The notes under the pieces: model-generated | Database searches by the model: none | The model's input: only the letters and a program-made list of their open reading frames with translations | Told to the model about the DNA's origin: nothing | From: a virus | Lineage: Duplodnaviria > Heunggongvirae > Uroviricota > Caudoviricetes | IMG/VR virus record: IMGVR_UViG_2563366802_000006 | Length of the DNA: 46,505 nt | Strand: one strand, 5' to 3' | Position numbers and translations under genes: made by a program | In this document: positions 1,020 to 28,851 of the stretch, one piece after another | Position numbering within the stretch: the stretch's first letter is position 1 | Layout: every line of letters begins with the position of its first letter

Positions 1020-3600
<2,581 letters not shown>

Positions 3601-6787: not shown

Positions 6788-7165
6788 TCAGGCGGCTTTG
6801 ATAGTCATATCATCTGAATCAAATATTCCTGATGTATCGATATCGGTAATTCTTATTCCTTCGCTACCATCCATTGGAGGCCATCCTTCCTGACCATTTC
6901 CATCATTCCAGTCGAACTCACACACAACACCATATGCATTTAAGTCGCTTGAAATTGCTATAAGCAGAGCATGTTGCGCCAGCATGATTAATACAGCATT
7001 TAATACAGAGCCGTGTTTATTGAGTCGGTATTCAGAGTCTGACCAGAAATTATTAATCTGGTGAAGTTTTTCCTCTGTCATTACGTCATGGTCGATTTCA
7101 ATTTCTATTGATGCTTTCCAGTCGTAATCAATGGTAAGCGTAAACTGACCGCCGTATGTAGCCAT
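6788..7165 (-). CDS. ea10: Ea10-like protein
   Basis: 125-aa ORF in the position lambda ea10 occupies (next leftward of cIII); similar size. Confidence 0.7.
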   Translation of the reverse strand: MATYGGQFTLTIDYDWKASIEIEIDHDVMTEEKLHQINNFWSDSEYRLNKHGSVLNAVLIMLAQHALLIAISSDLNAYGVVCEFDWNDGNGQEGWPPMDGSEGIRITDIDTSGIFDSDDMTIKAA

Positions 7166-7218
7166 CAGACGAGAATTGGTAACTTAGACGCCCATCTGAT
7201 ATAGACGGACATCTAAGT

Positions 7219-7644
7219 ATGGAATTACAGGACTGGCGAAAAGAACCTCGTAAAAACTATTCGAATGAATTCAAACTTCGTATGGTGGAACTGGCATCAC
7301 AACCTGGAGCTTGTGTTGCACAGATTGCACGTGAAAATGGCGTCAATGATAATGTTATTTTCAAATGGCTCAGGCTCTGGCAGAACGAAGGGCGTGTTTC
7401 GCGGCGTCTTCCGGTAACGACCTCTTCTGACACTGGCGTTGAATTATTACCTGTAGAAATAACGCCGGATGAGCAGAAAGAACCTGTGGCGGCCATTGCG
7501 CCGTCTTTATCCACTTCCACTCAGACCAGAGTCAGTGCCAGTTCCTGCAAGGTGGAATTCCGTCACGGTAACATGACGCTGGAAAATCCATCGCCAGAGC
7601 TGCTCACAGTGTTGATCCGTGAACTGACCGGGAGGGGAAGATGA
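7219..7644 (+). CDS. IS66-family accessory protein TnpA (orf1)
   Basis: 141-aa ORF with HTH-like N-terminus; stop overlaps the next ORF. Confidence 0.8.
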   Translation: MELQDWRKEPRKNYSNEFKLRMVELASQPGACVAQIARENGVNDNVIFKWLRLWQNEGRVSRRLPVTTSSDTGVELLPVEITPDEQKEPVAAIAPSLSTSTQTRVSASSCKVEFRHGNMTLENPSPELLTVLIRELTGRGR

Positions 7645-7991
7645 TCTCACTCCCATCAGGTACCCGTATCTGGCTCGTTGCCGGCGTTACCGATATGCGT
7701 AAATCCTTCAACGGACTGGGAGAACAGGTACAACATGTGCTGAATGATAATCCCTTCTCCGGTCACCTGTTTATCTTCCGTGGCCGACGGGGTGACACCG
7801 TCAAAATTCTTTGGGCTGATGCTGATGGTCTGTGCCTGTTCACCAAACGCCTGGAGGAAGGCCAGTTTATCTGGCCTGCGGTACGTGACGGCAAGGTATC
7901 CATTACCCGCTCGCAACTGGCAATGCTCCTCGATAAGCTGGACTGGCGTCAGCCAAAAACATCCAGCCTTAACGCACTGACAATGTTGTAA
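7641..7991 (+). CDS. IS66-family TnpB (orf2)
   Basis: 116-aa ORF MISLPSGTRIWLVAGVTDMRKSFNGL... typical of IS66 orf2. Confidence 0.85.
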   Translation: MISLPSGTRIWLVAGVTDMRKSFNGLGEQVQHVLNDNPFSGHLFIFRGRRGDTVKILWADADGLCLFTKRLEEGQFIWPAVRDGKVSITRSQLAMLLDKLDWRQPKTSSLNALTML

Positions 7992-8021
7992 AAAACTCCT
8001 GACCGCATTATAAAAACGGTC

Positions 8022-9635
8022 ATGAGTCAGAAATACCTCATTCGCATCGCAGAGCTGGAAAGGTTGCTCTCTGAGCAGGCTGAAGCCCTCCGTCAGAAAG
8101 ACCAGCAACTGAGTCTGGTTGAAGAGACGGAAGCCTTCCTGCGCTCTGCACTGACACGTGCCGAAGAAAAGATCGAAGAAGATGAACGGGAAATAGAACA
8201 TCTGCGGGCTCAGATAGAAAAACTGCGCCGGATGCTGTTCGGTACCCGTTCTGAAAAACTGCGTCGTGAAGTTGAACTGGCTGAGGCTCTGCTGAAACAA
8301 CGTGAACAGGACAGCGATCGTTACAGTGGGCGGGAAGACGATCCTCAGGTTCCCCGCCAGTTGCGACAGTCGCGCCATCGTCGTCCGTTACCGGCACACC
8401 TTCCCCGTGAAATACACCGCCTGGAGCCAGAAGAAAGCTGTTGCCCGGAGTGTGGCGGTGAGCTGGATTATCTGGGGGAAGTCAGCGCTGAACAGCTGGA
8501 ACTGGTGAGCAGTGCCCTGAAAGTGATCCGCACAGAACGGGTAAAAAAAGCCTGTACAAAATGTGACTGTATTGTTGAAGCACCGGCGCCGTCCCGCCCG
8601 ATAGAGCGTGGTATCGCGGGCCCCGGATTACTTGCCCGCGTGTTAACGGGAAAATACTGCGAACATCTGCCACTGTATCGTCAGAGTGAAATCTTTGCCC
8701 GCCAGGGTGTCGAACTGAGCCGGGCCTTACTCTCCAACTGGGTTGACGCGTGCTGCCAGTTAATGACACCGGTGAATGATGCCCTGTACCGTTATGTAAT
8801 GAACACCCGCAAGATTCACACTGATGACACACCGGTAAAGGTACTGGCACCGGGTCAGAAAAAGGCGAAAACAGGGCGTATCTGGACGTATGTCCGGGAT
8901 GATCGCAATGTGGGTTCGTCATCTCCTCCAGCGGTCTGGTTCGCGTACTCGCCGAACCGGCAGGGGAAACACCCGGAGCAACACCTCCGCCCCTTCCGGG
9001 GTATCCTGCAGGCGGATGCGTTCACAGGTTACGACAGGTTGTTCAGTGCAGAACGTGAAGGTGGTGCACTGACAGAAGTTGCGTGCTGGGCCCATGCCCG
9101 GCGAAAAATCCACGATGTATACATCAGCAGCAAAAGTGCGACGGCAGAAGAAGCACTGAAGCGAATCAGTGAACTGTACGCCATCGAGGATGAAATACGG
9201 GGATTACCGGAGTCAGAGCGTCTTGCCGTCAGGCAGCAGCGAAGCAAAGTGTTACTGACGTCGCTGCATGAATGGATGGTGGAGAAGAATGGTACGCTGT
9301 CGAAAAAATCCAGACTGGGCGAAGCGTTCAGCTATGTACTGAATCAGTGGGATGCCCTCTGTTATTACAGTGATGACGGTCTGGCGGAGGCGGATAATAA
9401 TGCTGCGGAAAGAGCGCTTCGTGCAGTCTGTCTCGGAAAGAAAAACTTTATGTTCTTTGGCAGCGATCACGGCGGCGAGCGTGGAGCACTGTTGTACGGG
9501 CTGATCGGCACCTGCCGTCTGAACGGTATCGATCCGGAAGCGTATCTGCGCCATATCCTGAGCGTACTGCCGGAATGGCCTTCCAACCGAGTTGATGAAC
9601 TCCTGCCATGGAACGTAGTACTCACCAATAAATAA
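8022..9635 (+). CDS. IS66-family transposase TnpC (orf3)
   Basis: 537-aa ORF with N-terminal coiled coil, zinc-finger CPECGGEL...CTKC and a DDE-type core. Confidence 0.88.
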   Translation: MSQKYLIRIAELERLLSEQAEALRQKDQQLSLVEETEAFLRSALTRAEEKIEEDEREIEHLRAQIEKLRRMLFGTRSEKLRREVELAEALLKQREQDSDRYSGREDDPQVPRQLRQSRHRRPLPAHLPREIHRLEPEESCCPECGGELDYLGEVSAEQLELVSSALKVIRTERVKKACTKCDCIVEAPAPSRPIERGIAGPGLLARVLTGKYCEHLPLYRQSEIFARQGVELSRALLSNWVDACCQLMTPVNDALYRYVMNTRKIHTDDTPVKVLAPGQKKAKTGRIWTYVRDDRNVGSSSPPAVWFAYSPNRQGKHPEQHLRPFRGILQADAFTGYDRLFSAEREGGALTEVACWAHARRKIHDVYISSKSATAEEALKRISELYAIEDEIRGLPESERLAVRQQRSKVLLTSLHEWMVEKNGTLSKKSRLGEAFSYVLNQWDALCYYSDDGLAEADNNAAERALRAVCLGKKNFMFFGSDHGGERGALLYGLIGTCRLNGIDPEAYLRHILSVLPEWPSNRVDELLPWNVVLTNK

Positions 9636-9714
9636 GCGTCAATACGGTGCTCCGTTGACGCTTACAATCAATGATGTATTTTTTGATGTTTGACATCTAT
9701 TCATATCCTCACAG

Positions 9715-10975: not shown

Positions 10976-11021
10976 CTGCCAATCTGTTCCGTTTGGCTAC
11001 CAGCGTCCTGCCGATGACTTA

Positions 11022-11100
11022 AATTTAAGATTTCTTTAACTATTGGTCAAGAGCGTTTTTGAAGAAAACTTAAATTTTGTTGCGAAGCTTAAGTTTTGCT
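11022..11100 (-). promoter_or_regulatory. pL/oL region: -35 TTGACC, 17-nt spacer, -10 TAAATT (minus strand), with operator-like repeats built on TTAAG/CTTAA half-sites
   Basis: Promoter hexamers read from the sequence; operator repeats (ATTTAAGATTTCTTTAAC, CTTAAATTTTG, CTTAAGTTTTG) resemble P22-type operators. Confidence 0.55.
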
Positions 11101-11116
11101 TTGATTTTTAAAGGAA

Positions 11117-11139
11117 AGAAAAAAAGGGGCGAATGCCCC
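11117..11139 (-). terminator. Rho-independent terminator directly after the repressor gene
   Basis: Minus-strand hairpin GGGGCATTCGCCCC followed by TTTTTTT, abutting the c2 stop. Confidence 0.6.
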
Positions 11140-11790
11140 TTATGGAAGGTTTGCTATTTTTGCATCGACAACTACACCGATGATTTTGCAGTTCCCGTTG
11201 ATCTCAATCATCGGATATTGTGGGTTAAGTGGTTTTAGAAACCTTCTGCCAGCATCAATAACTAACTTCTTGAAAGTTGCCTCGTTTTCTCCTTCGAGCT
11301 TTGCCACTACCAGCTTCCCATTACGAGGTTCTACTTCAGGATCGACTAGTATTATCATCCCTTCCGGGATGCTAAGACCGGCTGGAGCCGTCATCGAATC
11401 ACCCTTTACGTCCAGCCAAAACGAATCTTCTGAACAATCTACGGTTGTATCGTACCAGTTATCTATTGCACGCTTATGATATGGCTCTACAGCTTCCATC
11501 CAACATCCTGCGCTTACCCAACTAATTAGAGGATACGAACCTCTTGGATCATGCCTGCTGTGATAGGCAATGTTTGAAAGACTATCTTCTCCTTTCAACA
11601 AGTAATCAGGGGAGCACTGTAAAGCCTTGGCTAAAGCCAATAGGTTTTCGCCATTGGGCTCAGTTTCAGAACGCTCCCATTGGGAAATAGCAACATTAGA
11701 CACGCCAACCATCTTGCCAAGGGCAGCCTGCCTAATCTTAAGTTCTTTTCTGCGAGCGCGAATACGCTCACCCATCAGTTGTGTATTCAT
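11140..11790 (-). CDS. c2: Prophage repressor, P22 C2 type (HTH + LexA-like S24 domain)
   Basis: 216-aa ORF near-identical to P22 C2 (MNTQLMGERIRARRK.LKIRQAALGKMVGVSNVAISQWERSETEPNGENLLAL...). Confidence 0.95.
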   Translation of the reverse strand: MNTQLMGERIRARRKELKIRQAALGKMVGVSNVAISQWERSETEPNGENLLALAKALQCSPDYLLKGEDSLSNIAYHSRHDPRGSYPLISWVSAGCWMEAVEPYHKRAIDNWYDTTVDCSEDSFWLDVKGDSMTAPAGLSIPEGMIILVDPEVEPRNGKLVVAKLEGENEATFKKLVIDAGRRFLKPLNPQYPMIEINGNCKIIGVVVDAKIANLP

Positions 11791-11860
11791 AGTTAAGACA
11801 TCTTAAATAAACTTGACTTAAGATTCCTTTGATAGATAATTTAAGTGTTCTTTAATTTCG
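11791..11860. promoter_or_regulatory. oR/pR/pRM region: operators AGTTAAGACATCTTAAAT and AATTTAAGTGTTCTTTAAT; pR -35 TTGACT and -10 GATAAT (+ strand)
   Basis: Near-palindromic 18-19-bp sites with TTAAG...CTTAA half-sites between divergent c2 and cro; sigma-70-like hexamers overlap them. Confidence 0.65.
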
Positions 11861-11870
11861 GGGCGAGTCT

Positions 11871-12056
11871 ATGTACAAGAAAGATGTTATCGACCACTTC
11901 GGAACCCAGCGTGCGGTAGCTAAAGCGTTAGGCATTAGCGATGCAGCAGTCTCTCAGTGGAAGGAAGTCATCCCAGAGAAAGACGCCTATCGACTGGAAG
12001 TCGTTACAGCTGGCGCCCTGAAGTATCAAGAAAGTGCTTATCGCAAAGCGGCATAA
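11871..12056 (+). CDS. cro: Cro repressor (P22 type)
   Basis: 61-aa ORF MYKKDVIDHFGTQRAVAKALGISDAAVSQWKEVIPEKDAYRLE... matches P22 Cro. Confidence 0.93.
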   Translation: MYKKDVIDHFGTQRAVAKALGISDAAVSQWKEVIPEKDAYRLEVVTAGALKYQESAYRKAA

Positions 12057-12062
12057 GCAAAT

Positions 12063-12106
12063 TGCTCTTTAACAGTCATGGTCCTTATTCCCGCCGAAAT
12101 GCGGGA
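12063..12106 (+). promoter_or_regulatory. nutR (boxA GCTCTTTAAC + boxB CCCGCCGAAATGCGGG)
   Basis: Same boxA and boxB as nutL, here on the + strand just after cro. Confidence 0.65.
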
Positions 12107-12164
12107 ATACAACGCGCATCAGTTGGTGCGTATAACTTCTTATTTGTTAAGGAAATACTTACAT

Positions 12165-12443
12165 ATGCAACTTACAAGTACTCGCAAGAAAGCGAATGCA
12201 ATCACAAGCAACATCCTGAATCGAATTGCTGTACGTGGTCAGCGAAAGGTTGCTGATGCATTAGGGATTAATGAATCGCAAATTTCGCGATGGAAAGACA
12301 GCTTTATCCCAAAGATGGCCATGCTTCTGGCTGTGCTGGAGTGGGGTGTTGAAGACGAGGAATTAGCAAAGCTAGCAAAGAAAGTAGCCATGGTGCTGAC
12401 AAAAGAAAAGCCTCAAGACTGCTGCAACAGTTTTGAGGCCTGA
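12165..12443 (+). CDS. cII: CII-family lysogeny-establishment activator (P22 c1-like)
   Basis: Start chosen at ATG 12165 (MQLTSTRKK...) after an AGGAAA ribosome-binding site; conserved core SQISRWK...IPK.AMLLAVLEWGV as in lambda CII. The ORF-track extension from 12078 spans nutR and is not used. Confidence 0.85.
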   Translation: MQLTSTRKKANAITSNILNRIAVRGQRKVADALGINESQISRWKDSFIPKMAMLLAVLEWGVEDEELAKLAKKVAMVLTKEKPQDCCNSFEA

Positions 12444-12477
12444 TGTAGAAAGACTGGATCAATCCACAGGAGTCATT

Positions 12478-13377
12478 ATGACAAATACAGCAAAAATACT
12501 CAACTTCGGCAGAGGTAACTTTACCGGACAGGAGCGTAATGTGGCAGATCTCGATGATGGTTACGCCAGACTATCAAATATGCTGCTTGAGGCTTATTCA
12601 GGCGCAGATCTGACCAAGCGACAGTTTAAAGTGCTGCTTGCCATTCTGCGTAAAACCTATGGGTGGAATAAACCAATGGACAGAATCACCGATTCTCAAC
12701 TTAGCGAGATTACAAAGTTACCTGTCAAACGGTGCAATGAAGCCAAGTTAGAACTCGTCAGAATGAATATTATCAAGCAGCAAGGCGGCATGTTTGGACC
12801 AAATAAAAACATCTCAGAATGGTGTATCCCTCAAAACGAGGGAAAATCCCCTAAAACGAGGGATAAAACATCCCTCAAATTGGGGGATTGCTATCCCTCA
12901 AAACAGGGGGACACAAAAGACACTATTACAAAAGAAAAAAGAAAAGATTATTCGTCCGAGAATTCTGGCGAATCCTCTGACCAGCCAGAAAACGATCTTT
13001 CTGTGGTTAAACCGGATGCTGCAATTCAGAGCGGCAGTAAGTGGGGAACAGCAGAAGACCTGACCGCCGCAGAGTGGATGTTTGACATGGTGAAGACCAT
13101 CGCGCCATCAGCCAGAAAACCGAATTTTGCTGGGTGGGCTAACGATATCCGCCTGATGCGTGAACGTGACGGACGTAACCACCGCGATATGTGTGTGCTT
13201 TTCCGCTGGGCCTGCCAGGACAACTTCTGGTCCGGTAACGTGCTGAGTCCGGCCAAACTCCGCGACAAGTGGACCCAGCTCGAAATCAACCGTAACAAGC
13301 AACAGGCTGGCGTGACAGCCGGAAAACCAAAACTCGACCTGACAAACACTGACTGGATTTACGGGGTGGATCTATGA
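12478..13377 (+). CDS. O: Lambda O replication initiator
   Basis: Start at ATG 12478 (MTNTAKILNFGRGNF...); near-identical to lambda O. Confidence 0.95.
   Translation: MTNTAKILNFGRGNFTGQERNVADLDDGYARLSNMLLEAYSGADLTKRQFKVLLAILRKTYGWNKPMDRITDSQLSEITKLPVKRCNEAKLELVRMNIIKQQGGMFGPNKNISEWCIPQNEGKSPKTRDKTSLKLGDCYPSKQGDTKDTITKEKRKDYSSENSGESSDQPENDLSVVKPDAAIQSGSKWGTAEDLTAAEWMFDMVKTIAPSARKPNFAGWANDIRLMRERDGRNHRDMCVLFRWACQDNFWSGNVLSPAKLRDKWTQLEINRNKQQAGVTAGKPKLDLTNTDWIYGVDL
12826..12960. repeat. ori-lambda: four iterons (ATCCCTCAAAACGAGGGA-like) followed by an AT-rich stretch, inside O
   Basis: Four direct repeats (ATCCCTCAAAACGAGGGA, ATCCCCTAAAACGAGGGA, ATCCCTCAAATTGGGGGA, ATCCCTCAAAACAGGGGG) then ACAAAAGACACTATTACAAAAGAAAAAAGAAAAG. 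Confidence 0.9.
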
Positions 13378-14075
13378 AAAACATCGCCGCACAGATGGTT
13401 AACTTTGACCGTGAGCAGATGCGTCGGATCGCCAACAACATGCCGGAACAGTACGACGAAAAGCCACAGGTACAGCAGGTAGCGCAGATCATCAACGGTG
13501 TGTTCAGCCAGTTACTGGCAACTTTCCCGGCGAGTCTGGCTAACCGTGACCAGAACGAACTGAACGAAATCCGCCGCCAGTGGGTTCTGGCTTTCCGGGA
13601 AAACGGGATCACCACAATGGAACAGGTTAACGCAGGAATGCGCGTAGCCCGTCGGCAGAATCGACCATTTCTGCCATCACCCGGGCAGTTTGTTGCATGG
13701 TGCCGGGAAGAAGCATCCGTTATCGCCGGACTGCCAAACGTCAGCGAGCTGGTTGATATGGTTTACGAGTATTGCCGGAAGCGAGGCCTGTATCCGGATG
13801 CGGAGTCTTATCCGTGGAAATCAAACGCGCACTACTGGCTGGTTACCAACCTGTATCAGAACATGCGGGCCAATGCGCTTACTGATGCGGAATTACGGCG
13901 CAAGGCTGCCGATGAACTGACCTGTATGACAGCGCGAATTAACCGTGGTGAGACGATACCTGAACCAGTAAAACAACTTCCTGTTATGGGCGGTAGACCT
14001 CTAAATCGTGCACAGGCTCTGGCGAAGATCGCAGAAATTAAAGCTAAGTTCGGACTGAAAGGAGCAAGTGTATGA
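13374..14075 (+). CDS. P: Lambda P, DnaB helicase loader
   Basis: 233-aa ORF near-identical to lambda P. Confidence 0.95.
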   Translation: MKNIAAQMVNFDREQMRRIANNMPEQYDEKPQVQQVAQIINGVFSQLLATFPASLANRDQNELNEIRRQWVLAFRENGITTMEQVNAGMRVARRQNRPFLPSPGQFVAWCREEASVIAGLPNVSELVDMVYEYCRKRGLYPDAESYPWKSNAHYWLVTNLYQNMRANALTDAELRRKAADELTCMTARINRGETIPEPVKQLPVMGGRPLNRAQALAKIAEIKAKFGLKGASV

Positions 14076-14362
14076 CGGGCAAAGAGGCAATTATTCATTA
14101 CCTGGGGACGCATAATAGCTTCTGTGCGCCGGACGTTGCCGCGCTAACAGGCGCAACAGTAACCAGCATAAATCAGGCCGCGGCTAAAATGGCACGGGCA
14201 GGTCTTCTGGTTATCGAAGGTAAGGTCTGGCGAACGGTGTATTACCGGTTTGCTACCAGGGAAGAACGGGAAGGAAAGATGAGCACGAACCTGATTTTTA
14301 AGGAGTGTCGCCAGAGTGCCGCGATGAAACGGGTATTGGCGGTATATGGAGTTAAAAGATGA
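14072..14362 (+). CDS. ren: Ren (Rex-exclusion resistance)
   Basis: 96-aa ORF matching lambda Ren; overlaps the P stop. Confidence 0.9.
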   Translation: MTGKEAIIHYLGTHNSFCAPDVAALTGATVTSINQAAAKMARAGLLVIEGKVWRTVYYRFATREEREGKMSTNLIFKECRQSAAMKRVLAVYGVKR

Positions 14363-14386
14363 CCATCTACATTACTGAGCTAATAA

Positions 14387-14420
14387 CAGGCCTGCTGGTA
14401 ATCGCAGGCCTTTTTATTTG
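14387..14420 (+). terminator. tR2-like rho-independent terminator
   Basis: Hairpin AGGCCTGCTGGTAATCGCAGGCCT followed by TTTTTATTT between ren and ninB. Confidence 0.75.
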
Positions 14421-14435
14421 GGGGAGAGGGAAGTC

Positions 14436-14876
14436 ATGAAAAAACTAACCTTTGAAATTCGATCTCCAGCACATCAGCAAAACGCTATTCACGCAGTACA
14501 GCAAATCCTTCCAGACCCAACCAAACCAATCGTAGTAACCATTCAGGAACGCAACCGCAGCTTAGACCAGAATCGAAAGCTTTGGGCTTGCCTTGGTGAC
14601 GTCTCTCGTCAGGTTGAATGGCATGGTCGCTGGCTGGATGCAGAAAGCTGGAAGTGTGTGTTTACCGCAGCATTAAAGCAGCAGGATGTTGTTCCTAACC
14701 TTGCCGGGAATGGCTTTGTGGTAATAGGCCAGTCAACCAGCAGGATGCGTGTAAACGAATTTGCGGAGCTATTAGAGCTTATACAGGCATTCGGTACAGA
14801 GCGTGGCGTTAAGTGGTCAGACGAAGCGCGACTGGCTCTCGAATGGAAAGCGCGATGGGGAGATCGGGCTGCATGA
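14436..14876 (+). CDS. ninB: NinB recombination protein
   Basis: Start at ATG 14436 (MKKLTFEIRSPAHQQ...); matches lambda NinB. Confidence 0.92.
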   Translation: MKKLTFEIRSPAHQQNAIHAVQQILPDPTKPIVVTIQERNRSLDQNRKLWACLGDVSRQVEWHGRWLDAESWKCVFTAALKQQDVVPNLAGNGFVVIGQSTSRMRVNEFAELLELIQAFGTERGVKWSDEARLALEWKARWGDRAA

Positions 14877-15400
14877 CTATCAAATCAAATACGCCAGCAC
14901 ACGACAAGGACTGCTGGCAAACGCCGCTTTGGCTTTTTGATGCACTGGATATTGAGTTTGGATTCTGGCTGGATTCGGCAGCGAGCGACAAAAATGCTCT
15001 GTGCGCTCACTGGTTAACTGAGGCCGACGACGCGCTAAATTCTGAGTGGATAAGCCACGGTGCAATCTGGAATAACCCACCGTACAGCAATATCAGGCCG
15101 TGGGTGGAAAAAGCCGCCGAGCAGTGCATACAACAGCGACAGACGGTAGTTATGCTTGTGCCAGAGGATATGTCAGTCGGATGGTTCAGCAAGGCTCTGG
15201 AGAGTGTCGACGAAGTTCGCATTATCACTGATGGACGGATTAATTTTATCGAACCATCGACAGGGCTGGAGAAGAAGGGAAACAGCAAAGGCTCCATGCT
15301 GCTGATTTGGCGACCGTTCATCAGTCCTCGACGGATGTTTACTACCGTATCCAAAGCGGCATTGATGGCGATCGGGCAGGGCGTCAGGAGGGCGGCATGA
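14873..15400 (+). CDS. Phage DNA N6-adenine methyltransferase (Dam-like)
   Basis: Start at ATG 14873 overlapping the ninB stop (ATGA); NPPY-type catalytic motif (IWNNPPYS); about 175 aa. Confidence 0.8.
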
Positions 15401-15573
15401 GGCGACAGCGACGAAGTTTCACCGACATCATCTGCGAAAACTGCAAATACCTTCCAACGAAACGCTCCAGAAATAAACGCAAGCCAATCCCAAAAGAATC
15501 TGACGTAAAAACCTTCAATTACACAGCTCACCTGTGGGATATCCGGTGGCTAAGATATCGTGCGAGGAAATGA
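15397..15573 (+). CDS. ninE: NinE
   Basis: [52 protein letters not shown]...; ATG overlaps the methyltransferase stop. Confidence 0.85.
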
Positions 15574-15917
15574 CAATGGATTATTCACAGTTAAGTGATT
15601 TTGAAATTAACAGAATGGTAGGAGACATAATTTTTAAAGGCCTTTGGGCAAGTAAACCGGAAACATCAGGGAATAACACCAACAAATGGTATTACGGAAA
15701 TGCTGATACAACTTTTGAGCCATTAAATCATTTGCCTGACTACTGCAATGATCCGAGCGCTTCATGGCCGATTATTGAGAAATACAGGATTTCTATCTTA
15801 GACCAGTTAACTGAATGGTGTGTGGATGCAAAAGGCGTAAGCCCAATATTTGATACCAGACCTCTCCGCGCCGCCATGATTGTCTTTCTCCTGATGCAGG
15901 AGGCCAATAATGCTTAG
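15570..15917 (+). CDS. Hypothetical nin-region protein (about 115 aa, AT-rich codon usage)
   Basis: ORF coupled to the ninE stop; no family confidently recognised. Confidence 0.5.
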
Positions 15918-16104
15918 CCCATCTCAATCCCTTCAATACCTGAAAGGAAGCATAGAGCGGGCTTCAATGTGCACAGAGTGGATTCTATCTAGGTTTAGCG
16001 CATACAGAAGATTGCCGGTAAAGGGCATGCCAAGCAAGTCGATGCTGCATATGCAAAAGAATGCGCGCTGGAAGGTATGGCGAGAACACAGGTTATCTGG
16101 CTGA
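15910..16104 (+). CDS. NinF-like small protein with divergent C-terminal half
   Basis: N-terminus [10 protein letters not shown] resembles lambda NinF, but the remainder lacks the cysteine-rich NinF motif; not explained by a simple frameshift. Confidence 0.45.
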
Positions 16105-16123
16105 AAGAGGGGGTTATTAAGGC

Positions 16124-16486
16124 GTGAATACCTACAGCATCACATTACCCTGGCCTCCGAGCAATAATCGCTATTACCGCCATAATCGCGGGCGCACGCA
16201 CGTCAGCGCAGAGGGGCAGGCATACCGCGATAACGTCGCCCGAATCATTAAAAACGCAATGCTGGATATCGGCCTGGCTATGCCTGTGAAAATCCGCATT
16301 GAGTGCCACATGCCGGATCGCCGTCGCCGTGACCTGGATAATCTGCAAAAAGCCGCTTTTGACGCACTCACTAAAGCAGGTTTCTGGCTGGATGATGCTC
16401 AGGTCGTTGATTACCGCGTTGTGAAGATGCCTGTTACCAAAGGTGGGAGGCTGGAACTGACCATCACCGAAATGGGGAATGAATGA
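16124..16486 (+). CDS. rusA: RusA Holliday-junction resolvase
   Basis: 120-aa ORF matching DLP12 RusA ([23 protein letters not shown]...). Confidence 0.95.
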
Positions 16487-16623
16487 TGTTTGAGTTTAAT
16501 ATGGCAGAACTTCTTCGCCACCGCTGGGGGCGTCTGCGCTTATATCGTTTCCCCGGCTCTGTTTTGACCGATTACCGAATACTGAAGAATTACGCCAAAA
16601 CACTGACAGGAGCAGGAGTATGA
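16483..16623 (+). CDS. ylcG: YlcG-like small protein
   Basis: 46-aa ORF found by hand ([46 protein letters not shown]), overlapping the rusA stop; DLP12 synteny. Confidence 0.75.
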
Positions 16624-16708
16624 AGTCAGAGATAACAATCAACTAATACTGTTTTGTTGATTTTTGCTTGTAATTGGCGTTCTGGTCTGAGTTTTGTGGA
16701 GTAAGTTG

Positions 16709-17092
16709 ATGCGTGATATTCAGATGGTTCTTGAGCGTTGGGGAGCGTGGGCGGCTAATAATCATGAAGATGTGACCTGGTCGTCCATTGCCGCCGGTTT
16801 TAAGGGATTAATTCCTTCAAAAGTAAAATCTCGCCCGCAATGTTGTGACGATGACGCGATGATCATTTGCGGGTGCATGGCCCGTCTGAAAAAGAACAAC
16901 AGCGATTTGCACGATTTATTAGTAGATTATTATGTAGTCGGTATGACATTCATGTCACTGGCAGGTAAGCATTGCTGCTCTGATGGTTATATCGGGAAAA
17001 GGTTACAAAAGGCTGAGGGCATAATTGAAGGGATGTTAATGGCATTAGATATCCGGTTAGAGATGGATATCGTTGTTAATAACTCTAATTAA
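16709..17092 (+). CDS. quuD: Late-gene antiterminator Q (phage 21/82-type, QuuD-like)
   Basis: Start at ATG 16709 ([22 protein letters not shown]...); matches DLP12 QuuD as I recall it. Confidence 0.9.
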
Positions 17093-17111
17093 TATGCCAA
17101 TTGTTTACTAA

Positions 17112-17281
17112 AAATTATTAAAAATGGGGCGTTGAGACGCCCCCAAAAATAAAGGGTAATATATAACAGAAGGTTTATATAGTTAGAAGCAAGGTTGTGC
17201 TTCTAAAGGAAGTGGCTTGAGGGAGCCACTTATATGTTGGGGAGGCAACGCCTCCCGCAACATATCTTTTTCGTAATCAGA
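17112..17281 (-). ncRNA. ipeX: Candidate IpeX-like small RNA: multi-hairpin 3' region of the porin gene ending in a terminator
   Basis: Four consecutive minus-strand stem-loops downstream of the nmpC stop, the last (GGGGGCGTCTCAACGCCCC) followed by a T-run; the DLP12 sRNA IpeX is, to my recollection, derived from this nmpC-quuD interval. Confidence 0.4.
17232..17277 (+). terminator. tR'-like rho-independent terminator downstream of Q
   Basis: Long perfect stem ATATGTTGGGGAGGC-AACG-CCTCCCGCAACATAT followed by CTTTTTCG. Confidence 0.75.
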
Positions 17282-18364
17282 TTAGAACTGGTAAACCAGA
17301 CCTACAGCAACGATGTCATCAGTATCAATACCAGCTGTTTTGGTAAACTTACTATCGTCAATTAAGTTGATTTTGTAATCAACAAAAGTGGACATGTTTT
17401 TATTAAAGTAGTAAGTAGCACCGACATCGACATACTTGACTAAGTCTCGGTCACCATGAACACCAAGGTCTTTACCTTTTGACTGAAGGTAAGCAACAGA
17501 TGGGCGCAGACCGAAGTCAAACTGATATTGTGCTACTGCTTCAAAGTTTTGTGCTTTGTTTGCAATATGGTTATTACCAAAAACGGTCATATTCTGAGTT
17601 TCAGAATATGTGGTAGCCAGATAGATATTGTTCGCATCATATTTCAGGCCTGCAGCCCATACTTCCGCATTTTTGCCGGAGGCATTGAATTTGCTCTTAC
17701 CATAGGCGACCTGACCGTCAGTGCGATCTGATTTAGCATAGGTTGCACCCACGCCGAATCCTTCATACTCATAAGTAGTGGAGAAACCGAAACCATCACC
17801 ATTGGCTTCAGTTACGTCAGTGCGGTCATTTTTACCCTGATACTGAGCAGCAAAGTTCAGGCCATCGACCAGACCAAAGAAGTCGTTGTTACGATAAGTT
17901 GCAACACCAGTAGTGCGACCAGTCATGAACACATCTGTTTGGGTCCAGGTATCACCACCGAATTCTGGCAGGACGTCAGTCCACGCACCGATGTCGTATG
18001 CTACACCGTAGTTACGGCCGTAATCGATTGAGCCGTAATCACCAAATTTCAGGCCTGCAAATGCAAGACGGGTTTTGTCTTTGGAAGAACCTTGAGATTC
18101 AGCGCGGTTGCCTTTGAATTCATATTCCCACTGACCGAAACCAGTCAGTTGATCGTTGATTTGGGTTTCACCTTTGAAGCCAAGACGGGCATAAGTAGTA
18201 TCACCATCATCTGCATCATTAGAGGAGAAGTAGTGCTTAGCATTAACTTTCCCGTACAGATCCAGCTTGTTACTGTCTTTATTATAAATTTCAGCTGCCT
18301 GAGCAGACATCGCCATCAGTACTGATGCAGCTACAGCAGAAATTGCCACTGTTAATTTTTTCAT
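17282..18364 (-). CDS. nmpC: Outer-membrane porin, OmpC/OmpF/PhoE family (NmpC-like), apparently intact
   Basis: 360-aa ORF with signal peptide [23 protein letters not shown] and C-terminal ...VAVGLVYQF; located between Q and the holin as in DLP12. Confidence 0.93.
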
Positions 18365-18792
18365 CGTGAGCCCTTTTTTTTGAACTATTATTAAAAAATG
18401 ATGTCACTGCGCGATAAATATTCATCTAATCAATGTGATTATTTCAAGATGTAAGTTTTGGTTTCTCGTTTAATTTGTGAAGTAGATCTCTATTTTTATC
18501 TGAACTTTTTTCTATCGAATCCTATTCATGGCTCTTGGCTGAATAAAAATAAATCTATTAGCCAATTTATATTAATGGCTGTTATTTATAAGTGCTCTAT
18601 AATTTGAAGGTTCAATTTAAATTGGCTAAAAATAACGCTGGAAATTATTTGTTGGTTATTTGTTGAGATTTGCTTATGTATTTGTAGTGGTGTTTTCAAT
18701 ACTCGGTAGCATTCTCGCAAATATCATTTAGTGGTTTACGTACGTAAAAAATTGGTTATGCTGTTAAGAGTGGTTACTTCGTCACACAGCTT

Positions 18793-18826
18793 AAACCCGC
18801 CGTCGAGCGGGTTTTTCCATTTTTTG
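18793..18826 (+). terminator. Rho-independent terminator candidate about 110 bp upstream of the holin gene
   Basis: Hairpin AAACCCGCCGTCGAGCGGGTTT followed by TTCCATTTTTT on the + strand. Confidence 0.5.
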
Positions 18827-18937
18827 AGTCTCGATATTAGCTGATAACCCAATACCTGAGTTATTCACTGACTCCGAGTCTGTTACGTTTCGTAGTATTC
18901 CCTCAATTTACACCCGCTTTGTCTGCGAGGTGGGGTT

Positions 18938-19153
18938 ATGCAATCCATGGATAAGTTAACAACGGGTGTCGCCTATGGCACCTCAGCAGGTAGTGCCGGG
19001 TACTGGTTTTTACAGCTGCTAGATAAAGTCACGCCCTCACAGTGGGCGGCAATTGGAGTGCTGGGTAGCCTGGTATTTGGCCTGCTGACGTACCTGACAA
19101 ACCTTTATTTCAAGATTAAAGAAGACAAGCGTAAGGCTGCACGGGGAGAGTAA
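18938..19153 (+). CDS. essD: Pinholin (phage 21 S21 family) with dual-start motif
   Basis: 71-aa [74 protein letters not shown]; Met1 and Met4 give the antiholin/holin pair. Confidence 0.92.
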
Positions 19154-20891: not shown

Positions 20892-21039
20892 CATCTGAAT
20901 TTCACAGCGCATCTCACGCGCATATTACATCACCCGAGCCTTTCAGAAAGTTGAGCCTGAGAACTGCCGTATATGGTGGCGACCATCTCGGGGCGGCTTT
21001 TCTGTGAGACAGGCTCACTTTCTAAAAGGTAAAGACGCT

Positions 21040-21528
21040 ATGAACCAATTAGAAGAAAAGCTTCAAAGAATGATTTCCTTATACAAGGAAGATAACTGCC
21101 AAAAAGTTCCTGAAAACATCGCAGAGTTAATGGAATTGGCAAGTGAATTTTCTGGCATGCTTAAGTCGTCAGGTGTTCGGTCAGCGTTCTTTGTTGAAAT
21201 GCTGATGCACGGCGGACTTATGGCAACAATGAGACGTGTAATGGAAGACCAGAGAAAAGAACCTCCTCAGGTATACGTTTTGTCATCGAAGAAAACTGGG
21301 CTAACCAAAATTGGGTATTCATCCAACATTCCACAACGCATCAAATCGCTTGGCAACTCTGGACCAGACTGCTTGAAGCTTGAGTGCCTGATCCCTGGTG
21401 GAAGAGAAACTGAAAACATGCTTCATCGCAAATTTGCCGCAAAGAGAAAGCACGGTGAATGGTTCGCCCTGTCCAAGGATGACATTGAGGGATTGAAATC
21501 TGTAGCGATTACTTCTGATGGCTATTAA
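21040..21528 (+). CDS. T5orf172 / GIY-YIG-like domain protein (moron)
   Basis: Start chosen at ATG 21040 (MNQLEEKL...); C-terminal half has the T5orf172-type pattern VYVLSSKKTGLTKIGYSSNIPQRIKSL...HGEWFALS. Confidence 0.6.
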   Translation: MNQLEEKLQRMISLYKEDNCQKVPENIAELMELASEFSGMLKSSGVRSAFFVEMLMHGGLMATMRRVMEDQRKEPPQVYVLSSKKTGLTKIGYSSNIPQRIKSLGNSGPDCLKLECLIPGGRETENMLHRKFAAKRKHGEWFALSKDDIEGLKSVAITSDGY

Positions 21529-23842: not shown

Positions 23843-27523
<3,681 letters not shown>

Positions 27524-27543
<20 letters not shown>

Positions 27544-28842
27544 TCTCCCGCATATTGCCAGTATGGCCTTTAATGAGCCGCTGATGCTTGAACCCGCCTA
27601 TGCGCGGGTTTTCTTTTGTGCGCTTGCAGGCCAGCTTGGGATCAGCCGCCTGACGGATGCGGTGTCCGGCGACAGCCTGACTGCCGGAGAGGCACCCGCG
27701 GCGCTGGCGTTATCCGTTGATGATGACGGACCACGACAGGCCCGCAGTTATCAGGTCATGAACGGCATCGCCGTGCTGCCGGTGTCCGGCACGCTGGTCA
27801 GCCGGACGCGGGCGCTGCAGCCGTATTCGGGGATGACCGGTTACAACGGCATTATCGCCGTCTGCAACAGGCTGCCAGCGATCCGATGGTGGACGGCATT
27901 CTGCTGGATATGGACACACCGGGCGGGATGGTGGCGGGAGCATTTGACTGTGCTGACATCATCGCCCGTGTGCGAGACATAAAACCGGTATGGGCGCTGG
28001 CCAACGACATGAACTGCAGTGCAGGTCAGCTGCTTGCCAGCGCCGCCTCCCGGCGTCTGGTCACGCAGACCGCCCGGACAGGCTCCATCGGCGTCATGAT
28101 GGCTCACAGTAATTACGGTGCTGCGCTGGAGAAACAGGGCGTGGAAATCACGCTGATTTACAGCGGCAGCCATAAGGTGGATGGCAACCCCTACAGCCAT
28201 CTACCGGATGATGTCCGGGAAACACTGCAGTCCCGGATGGATGCAACCCGCCGGATGTTTGCACAGAAGGTGTCGGCATATACCGGCCTGTCCGTGCAGG
28301 CTGTGCTGGATACCGAGGCTGCAGTGTACAGCGGTCAGGAGGCCATTGATGCCGGACTGGCTGATGAACTTGTGAACAGTACCGATGCGATCACCGTCAT
28401 GCGTGATGCACTGGATGCACGTAAATCCCGTCTCTCAGGAGGGCGAATGACCAAAGAGACTCAATCAACAACTGTTTCAGCCACTGCTTCGCAGGCTGAC
28501 GTTACTGGCGTGGTGCAAGCGACGGAGGGCGAGAACGCCAGCGCTGCGCAGCCGGACGTGAACGCGCAGATCACCGCAGCGGTTGCGGCAGAAAACAGTC
28601 GCATTATGGGGATCCTCAACTGTGAGGAGGCTCACGGACGCGAAGAACAGGCATGCGTGCTGGCCGAAACCCCCGGTATGACCGTGGAAACGGCCCGCCG
28701 TATTCTGGCCGCAGCACCACAGAGTGCACAGGCGCGCAGTGACACTGCGCTGGATCGTCTGATGCAGGGGGCACCGGCACCGCTGGCTGCAGGTAACCCG
28801 GCATCTGATGCCGTTAACGATTTGCTGAACACACCAGTGTAA
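27524..28842 (+). pseudogene. C: Head protease/scaffold C, disrupted by a 1-bp deletion in a C-run near 27857-27860
   Basis: N-terminal part reads in one frame to a stop at 27982 and the C-terminal part continues in another frame from 27886; lambda has ATCGCCCGTCTG where this sequence has ATCGCCGTCTG. Confidence 0.75.
28255..28842 (+). CDS. nu3: Scaffolding protein Nu3 (nested in the C-terminal frame of C); start approximate
   Basis: C-terminal frame of C is intact; the internal start was not determined precisely. Confidence 0.4.
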   Translation: MFAQKVSAYTGLSVQAVLDTEAAVYSGQEAIDAGLADELVNSTDAITVMRDALDARKSRLSGGRMTKETQSTTVSATASQADVTGVVQATEGENASAAQPDVNAQITAAVAAENSRIMGILNCEEAHGREEQACVLAETPGMTVETARRILAAAPQSAQARSDTALDRLMQGAPAPLAAGNPASDAVNDLLNTPV

Positions 28843-28851
28843 GGGATGTTT

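Follow-up and report, generated by a model that had tools for sequence, protein, structure and literature searches.

The closest described systems to the dam gene analysed here are M.EcoVT2Dam of the Stx phage VT2-Sa and M.HinHP1Dam of the Haemophilus phage HP1. M.EcoVT2Dam is listed in PMC6602927 as an orphan methyltransferase with GATC as its known target, and the primary citation for the enzyme, as given in PMC7556043, is Radlinska & Bujnicki 2001 (PMID 11720311). That characterisation probably relied on overexpression, which can yield off-target methylation according to a caution in PMC10810198. The dam gene of HP1 was cloned (Piekarowicz & Bujnicki 1999, as cited in PMC7556043) and its product is grouped with the phage Dam-like proteins in the same article, which calls the contribution of phage Dam enzymes to the life cycle of their phages poorly understood. 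A further type of orphan "Dam homologue", likewise prophage-borne in E. coli lambdoid phages and annotated as GATC-specific, is represented by M.EcoGV and M.EcoPA8orf6770P. Unlike the enzyme described below these belong to the MT-A70 family, carry a DPPW motif, resemble METTL3/14 and are encoded in the early-left region of Stx phages near int. The M.EcoGV-type enzyme needs a partner, PNB-2, and prefers 16S rRNA (PMC10810198). As this other homologue is of the MT-A70 type, the name M.EcoVT2Dam fits the nin-region gene.

The window, by which we mean the whole stretch of 46,505 nucleotides that was analysed, holds a lambda-like prophage at the argU/DLP12 site, starting at intD. Its Dam protein was identical to orf32 of VT2-Sakai (NP_050531.1) at 174 of 175 residues, with I60V as the sole change, and that phage has no annotated methyltransferase other than orf32. 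M.EcoVT2Dam is also 175 residues long, occupies the same slot between ninB and ninE and has the same ATGA junctions. In fact, nothing of substance differs between the two, the element in the window being a lambda-like prophage that lacks stx and carries insertion elements. The protein of phage Nil2 was 100% identical to that of the window, and near-identical proteins were found in HK97, 933W-type Stx phages, 24B, Nil2, Sf101 and mEp332. Identity to HP1 orf13 (NP_043482.1), the only methyltransferase annotated in HP1, was 38% over 150 residues (E 1e-32). M.HinHP1Dam, at 173 residues, shares the Pfam and NCBIfam family, the NPPY motif and the invariant residues with the window protein but differs in context. 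HP1 is a P2-like phage in which dam closes the early-right operon; a MazG-like gene precedes it, and neither ninB nor ninE forms part of this context.

Gene boundaries, coupling and operon position

The dam open reading frame as read from the window spans 528 nt and encodes 175 residues (Table 1). RefSeq/PGAP sets the same boundaries in E. coli ET210 and 3359, whose DNA is identical here, and other strains likewise carry 100% identical DNA. A GTG start at 14813, which gives the longer reading frame in a mechanical list, was rejected because PGAP and homologues from many genera begin at ATG 14873. The antisense reading frames at 15007-15531 (-) and 14809-14991 (-) had no credible Pfam match, and an Rfam search of 11000-19000 found no RNA family.

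Table 1. Coordinates of dam, its sequence elements and the neighbouring features in the window.
Feature	Position	Strand	Description and basis
dam	14873..15400	+	175-aa phage N6-adenine DNA methyltransferase of the PF05869/TIGR01712 family, orthologue of M.EcoVT2Dam; ORF and HMM matches, PGAP boundaries
FWLDSAAS codons (residues 31-38)	14963..14986	+	Strand beta-1 ending in invariant D34, then small-residue loop; F31 and L33 nearly invariant
NPPY codons (residues 68-71)	15074..15085	+	Catalytic motif IV; sequence, invariant in 37-sequence alignment
ATGA, dam start over ninB stop	14873..14876	+	Sequence; kept in 6 of 6 alleles compared
ATGA, ninE start over dam stop	15397..15400	+	Sequence; kept in 6 of 6 alleles compared
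GGGGAG	14857..14862	+	Shine-Dalgarno-like, putative function; inside ninB 3' end, 10 nt before dam ATG
AGGAGG	15386-15391	+	Inside dam 3' end, upstream of ninE
ninB	14436..14876	+	Orf-family recombination mediator, upstream coupled gene; PF05772, 1e-54; PGAP
ninE	15397..15573	+	Downstream coupled gene; PF05322, 3e-42
cI	11140-11790	-	pR-like promoter sits between cI and cro
pR-like promoter, TTGACT-16-GATAAT	11813..11840	+	Upstream of cro; 10/12 consensus; presumed source of the dam transcript, putative function
tR2-like intrinsic terminator	14388..14421	+	Strong terminator between ren and ninB; 8-bp stem (14388-14411) with 6 GC pairs, then T-run

An earlier note on this DNA had described an N6-adenine methyltransferase of roughly 175 residues with an NPPY motif, joined to ninB and ninE by ATGA overlaps at both ends. 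The length, the motif and the enzyme class agree with the reading frame, the position of NPPY at residues 68-71 and the family HMM matches, and the overlaps were read directly from the sequence between neighbours that match PF05772 and PF05322. The interval 14840-14880 contains GGGGAGATCGGGCTGCATGACT, in which the dam ATG (14873-14875) shares bases with the TGA of ninB (14874-14876). At the other end 15386-15400 reads AGGAGGGCGGCATGA, in which the TGA of dam (15398-15400) shares bases with the ATG of ninE (15397-15399). A single GATC was observed at 14862-14865, between GGGGAG and the dam start codon.

The gene order was cI (-), the pR-like promoter, cro, cII, O, P, ren, the terminator, ninB, dam, ninE, ninX, rusA, ylcG and Q. 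By its position, the terminator would be the equivalent of lambda tR2. The dam gene thus lies where lambdoid nin-region genes lie, between the replication genes and Q, 3' of a tR2-like terminator and within a run joined by ATGA. The translational coupling within the nin region that the earlier note had proposed is upheld by the junctions on both sides of dam. Five such junctions were found in the operon (O/P, P/ren, ninB/dam, dam/ninE and rusA/ylcG), and PMC8022706 describes ATGA coupling as a trait that all lambdoid phages share in their nin regions; the coupling is therefore typical of the region and not special to dam. The location behind a tR2-like terminator in the pR operon points to dam as a delayed-early lytic gene. 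The dam gene of phage 24B, which is 100% identical to that of VT2-Sakai, was reported to change significantly in expression on prophage induction (PMC3342100). A remnant of a DUF1364-family gene, partial in related strains as well, was noted at 16038-16127 (+) just 5' of rusA, the trace of an earlier deletion or of a mosaic junction within the nin region.

Family membership, predicted fold and target

The protein matched the Pfam family PF05869 "Dam" with 218 bits against a cut-off of 28.1 (8e-65, profile positions 1-167 of 169) and the NCBIfam equivalog TIGR01712 "phage N-6-adenine-methyltransferase" with 264.2 bits against a cut-off of 97.05 (3e-79, positions 1-165 of 165). The match to PHROG 111 "DNA methyltransferase" had an E value of 9e-88. 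Judged by these profile scores, assignment to a methyltransferase family is far beyond chance. A family alignment of 37 members with identities down to 29% was used to evaluate individual residues. All 14 invariant columns (T17, P18, D34, L55, N68, P69, P70, Y71, S72, D99, S101, W104, R122 and F125) were present in the window protein, as were the 17 near-invariant positions. The possibility that catalytic residues had been mutated, raised beforehand as a reason to doubt activity, was checked in this way and none was found altered. The FWLDSAAS segment is a predicted AdoMet-binding element similar to motif I. Six dam alleles from independent phages and prophages differed by 0-12 nt, nearly all of the differences being synonymous (pN/pS 0.03-0.11), which marks strong purifying selection on dam.

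In a full HMMER scan of 1.84 billion representatives at 50% identity, 8734 matched the family with E <= 1e-3, and for 2358 the match had E <= 1e-10. Some PF05869 representatives, in proteins of 500-690 residues, were fused C-terminally to C5-cytosine DNA methylase domains, and these fusions support DNA as the substrate of the family. A chimera of replication protein O and Dam (370 residues, 98% identity) was also seen in an E. coli prophage and is probably a deletion product; none of the fusion and chimera proteins (P0168, P0169, P0270 and P0150) is encoded in the window. A tblastn search with the Dam protein gave matches in 1901 phage records, and in 244 of these the identity was at least 95%. 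Of 5426 complete E. coli genomes, 1566 (29%) carried the 528-nt gene at an identity of at least 95%, in up to five copies each. The E. coli copies are annotated "phage N-6-adenine-methyltransferase" and lie between NinB and NinE, and across the E. coli genomes and the approximately 244 phage records the order was nearly always ninB-dam-ninE. The gene of the window is thus an intact copy of a common lambdoid-phage gene that is already known. As a discovery it carries little weight, being annotated by a standard pipeline, covered by a curated equivalog model, cloned as well as characterised in 2001 and carried by roughly 29% of the complete E. coli genomes.

The fold was predicted with AlphaFold on the family alignment. 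The resulting model, a confident one, was a single alpha/beta domain with a mean pLDDT of 90.1 and a pTM of 0.87, in which a strand at 31-34 ends in D34 and a strand at 64-67 runs into NPPY, followed by helix-strand units; a loop at approximately 121-140 was of lower confidence. A search of the PDB by sequence gave chance matches only (E > 0.1). The nearest solved folds to the model were N6-adenine methyltransferases, the best of them, PCIF1/CAPAM, being an RNA enzyme with a structural match figure of 11.3. Lower figures were obtained for M.BseCI and M.TaqI (9.6), MmeI (9.4), CamA (9.1), Type I HsdM subunits (8-8.8) and E. coli Dam (8.3, over about 107 residues). On this model Dam is predicted to be a small single-domain class I AdoMet methyltransferase fold that lacks a separate target-recognition domain. 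The target sequence would probably be recognised, and the DNA contacted, through conserved loops that follow strands 5 and 6, around D99/S101/W104, R122/F125 and N137/K139.

Canonical Dam enzymes have a DPPY motif, approximately 260-280 residues and a dedicated DNA-recognition domain. The window protein differs on all three counts, having NPPY, 175 residues and no recognition domain, and falls outside PF02086. No sequence homology to the canonical alpha-class enzymes of PF02086 (E. coli Dam, T4 Dam and DpnM) was detected in the Pfam search. The GATC specificity that phage Dam and canonical Dam have in common is treated as convergent in PMC5537653. We also considered whether the window protein could be the "prophage DNA adenine methyltransferase" of Stx phages that was shown to be an rRNA methyltransferase (PMC10810198). 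This was rejected, as that is a different gene of the MT-A70 family with a DPPW motif in the early-left region, while the window protein had no Pfam match to MT-A70 and carries NPPY, not DPPW. Foldseek matches of the model to METTL3-14 had a probability of 0.12-0.13 and a TM of 0.25. From its near-identity to M.EcoVT2Dam, together with the statements in the literature, the protein is expected to methylate the adenine of GATC.

Proposed role and rival readings

The explanation that we favour, at a probability of roughly 85%, is that dam encodes a functional AdoMet-dependent orphan N6-adenine DNA methyltransferase of the HP1 Dam/M.EcoVT2Dam family which acts in the lytic phase and would top up GATC methylation. 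Once repression by CI is lifted, transcription would start from pR, and N would allow the polymerase to pass the tR2-like terminator so that dam is transcribed. Translation would then proceed in a coupled chain from ninB to dam to ninE by way of the ATGA overlaps, and Dam would be made alongside replication and recombination functions. The single Rossmann-type domain of 175 residues with its NPPY active site would methylate the adenine of GATC, which would keep fast-replicating and recombining phage DNA fully methylated at GATC where host Dam lags or in hosts poor in Dam. The progeny DNA, once methylated, would be resistant to endonucleases specific for unmethylated GATC and would escape nicking by MutH. 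Virion DNA of lambda and P22 is reported to be under-methylated by host Dam, possibly as replication outruns the enzyme (PMC8022706), and both phages are without such a dam gene. Methylation top-up, which would make good this shortfall, and protection would be the most likely role of dam. The window has 123 GATC sites, where base composition predicts 180 and a Markov estimate 219. This under-representation is not what full self-protection would predict and it does not discriminate between the hypotheses.

Three other readings concern what the enzyme does or what it works with. Altered host gene regulation was the second role offered by the earlier note. In the form considered here, dam would be an epigenetic regulator of lysogenic conversion, expressed in the lysogen, and would either alter host expression or stabilise lysogeny. 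An antibody-based screen did in fact pick up the dam product of 24B in cultures of lysogens, and its authors suggested a function supplementary to host Dam (PMC3342100); such cultures, however, include spontaneously induced cells. Here dam sits past a terminator in a pR operon that CI represses. With 99.9% of GATC sites already methylated by host Dam (PMC6602927), a second enzyme of this specificity contributes little. On the account of operon position and host methylation this is the less likely of the two roles, reprogramming of the lysogen by dam is unlikely, and we hold the reading as a whole to be highly improbable. It is similarly improbable that duplex GATC is not the real substrate and that a partner, possibly the coupled NinB or NinE, directs Dam to single-stranded DNA, recombination or replication intermediates or RNA, with GATC methylation as a side activity of overexpression. 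The lack of a recognition domain, the RNA enzyme as best structural match and the co-translation with NinB, which as an Orf protein binds single-stranded DNA, are all consistent with such a view, and the other "GATC Dam homologue" of Stx phages, an MT-A70 enzyme that is mainly a 16S rRNA methyltransferase with a bound partner (PMC10810198), provides a precedent. That precedent stems from a different family, though, as seen from the motif, the missing Pfam match and the poor METTL3/14 matches. A fixed partner is also difficult to reconcile with the variable neighbours within the Dam family, in which the HP1 gene follows a MazG-like gene and all neighbours in mEp013 are hypothetical, with no NinB or NinE annotation. 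The fusions of PF05869 to C5 DNA methylases, the GATC specificity reported for M.EcoVT2Dam in PMC6602927 and the placing of the HP1 enzyme among phage Dam-like proteins (PMC7556043) likewise argue for DNA. Least credible of all is an unrecognised restriction-modification pair in which dam would supply the methylase. On either side of dam lie ninB and ninE, not the adjacent cognate endonuclease of a type II system. PGAP lists no restriction endonuclease in the near-identical 3359 prophage, and none is annotated beside dam in VT2-Sakai, HP1 or mEp332. The best PADLOC models for Dam were "oMTase" (orphan methyltransferase) at 5e-19 and 5e-17. The absence of a cognate endonuclease, as claimed before, is thereby confirmed at the level of annotation in the near-identical prophage and of PADLOC class. 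The one feature in favour of a pair is a GIY-YIG-superfamily reading frame (MUG113/T5orf172) in the same prophage, which was tried as nuclease partner and rejected on distance and lack of conserved linkage: it lies 5.6 kb from dam in another transcription unit and is adjacent to dam in no related phage examined. An enzyme that cuts GATC would moreover be pointless where the host GATC is already methylated.

A lytic GATC methyltransferase thus remains the preferred reading, and the last alternative bears on whether it is put to use. The gene may be an unused passenger on a defective prophage, intact since decay has not yet arrived. The early-left region is interrupted by IS100 at 1389-3190 and ISEc23 at 7134-9665, the head protease gene is frameshifted near 27886-27982 and an xis-like gene is truncated. 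Set against this, the reading frame and the catalytic residues are undamaged, as is the ATGA junction at each end, other strains carry DNA that is 100% identical, and purifying selection across the dam alleles is strong. Furthermore, as cI, N, pR, O and P all seem to be intact, dam could still be expressed on induction. We regard the passenger reading as tentative, though clearly more plausible than the three above. As it concerns use in this strain and not the identity of the gene it is compatible with the favoured explanation; dam may see little or no use in this host.

Condition of the prophage

The prophages of strains 3359 and ET210 were nearly identical to the window except for the positions of insertion elements, that of 3359 covering 1-45383. 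In the window IS100 (istA/istB) adjoins intD, and the truncated xis-like gene, which encodes an HTH protein, lies beside it. ISEc23, of the IS66 family (tnpA, tnpB and transposase), lies in the pL operon between an ea10-like gene and sieB; in related strains it was found at other positions or was absent. The head protease/scaffold gene (S49 peptidase, similar to lambda C) at approximately 27526-28844 (+) was split into two overlapping reading frames at 27389-27982 and 27886-28842 and is annotated as frameshifted in 3359 also. The prophage is probably defective for head assembly.

The GIY-YIG-superfamily reading frame at 21004-21528 (+) follows the lysis genes. It matched MUG113 at 7e-15 and T5orf172 at 3e-10, and weakly the PADLOC model PDC-S57 (8e-6); it could be a moron encoding a defence or homing-type nuclease. 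Between Q and the lysis cassette, as in DLP12, an OmpC/NmpC-like porin gene is intact at 17282-18364 (-) (Porin_1, 2e-151), and the same gene is split by IS1 in strain 3359.
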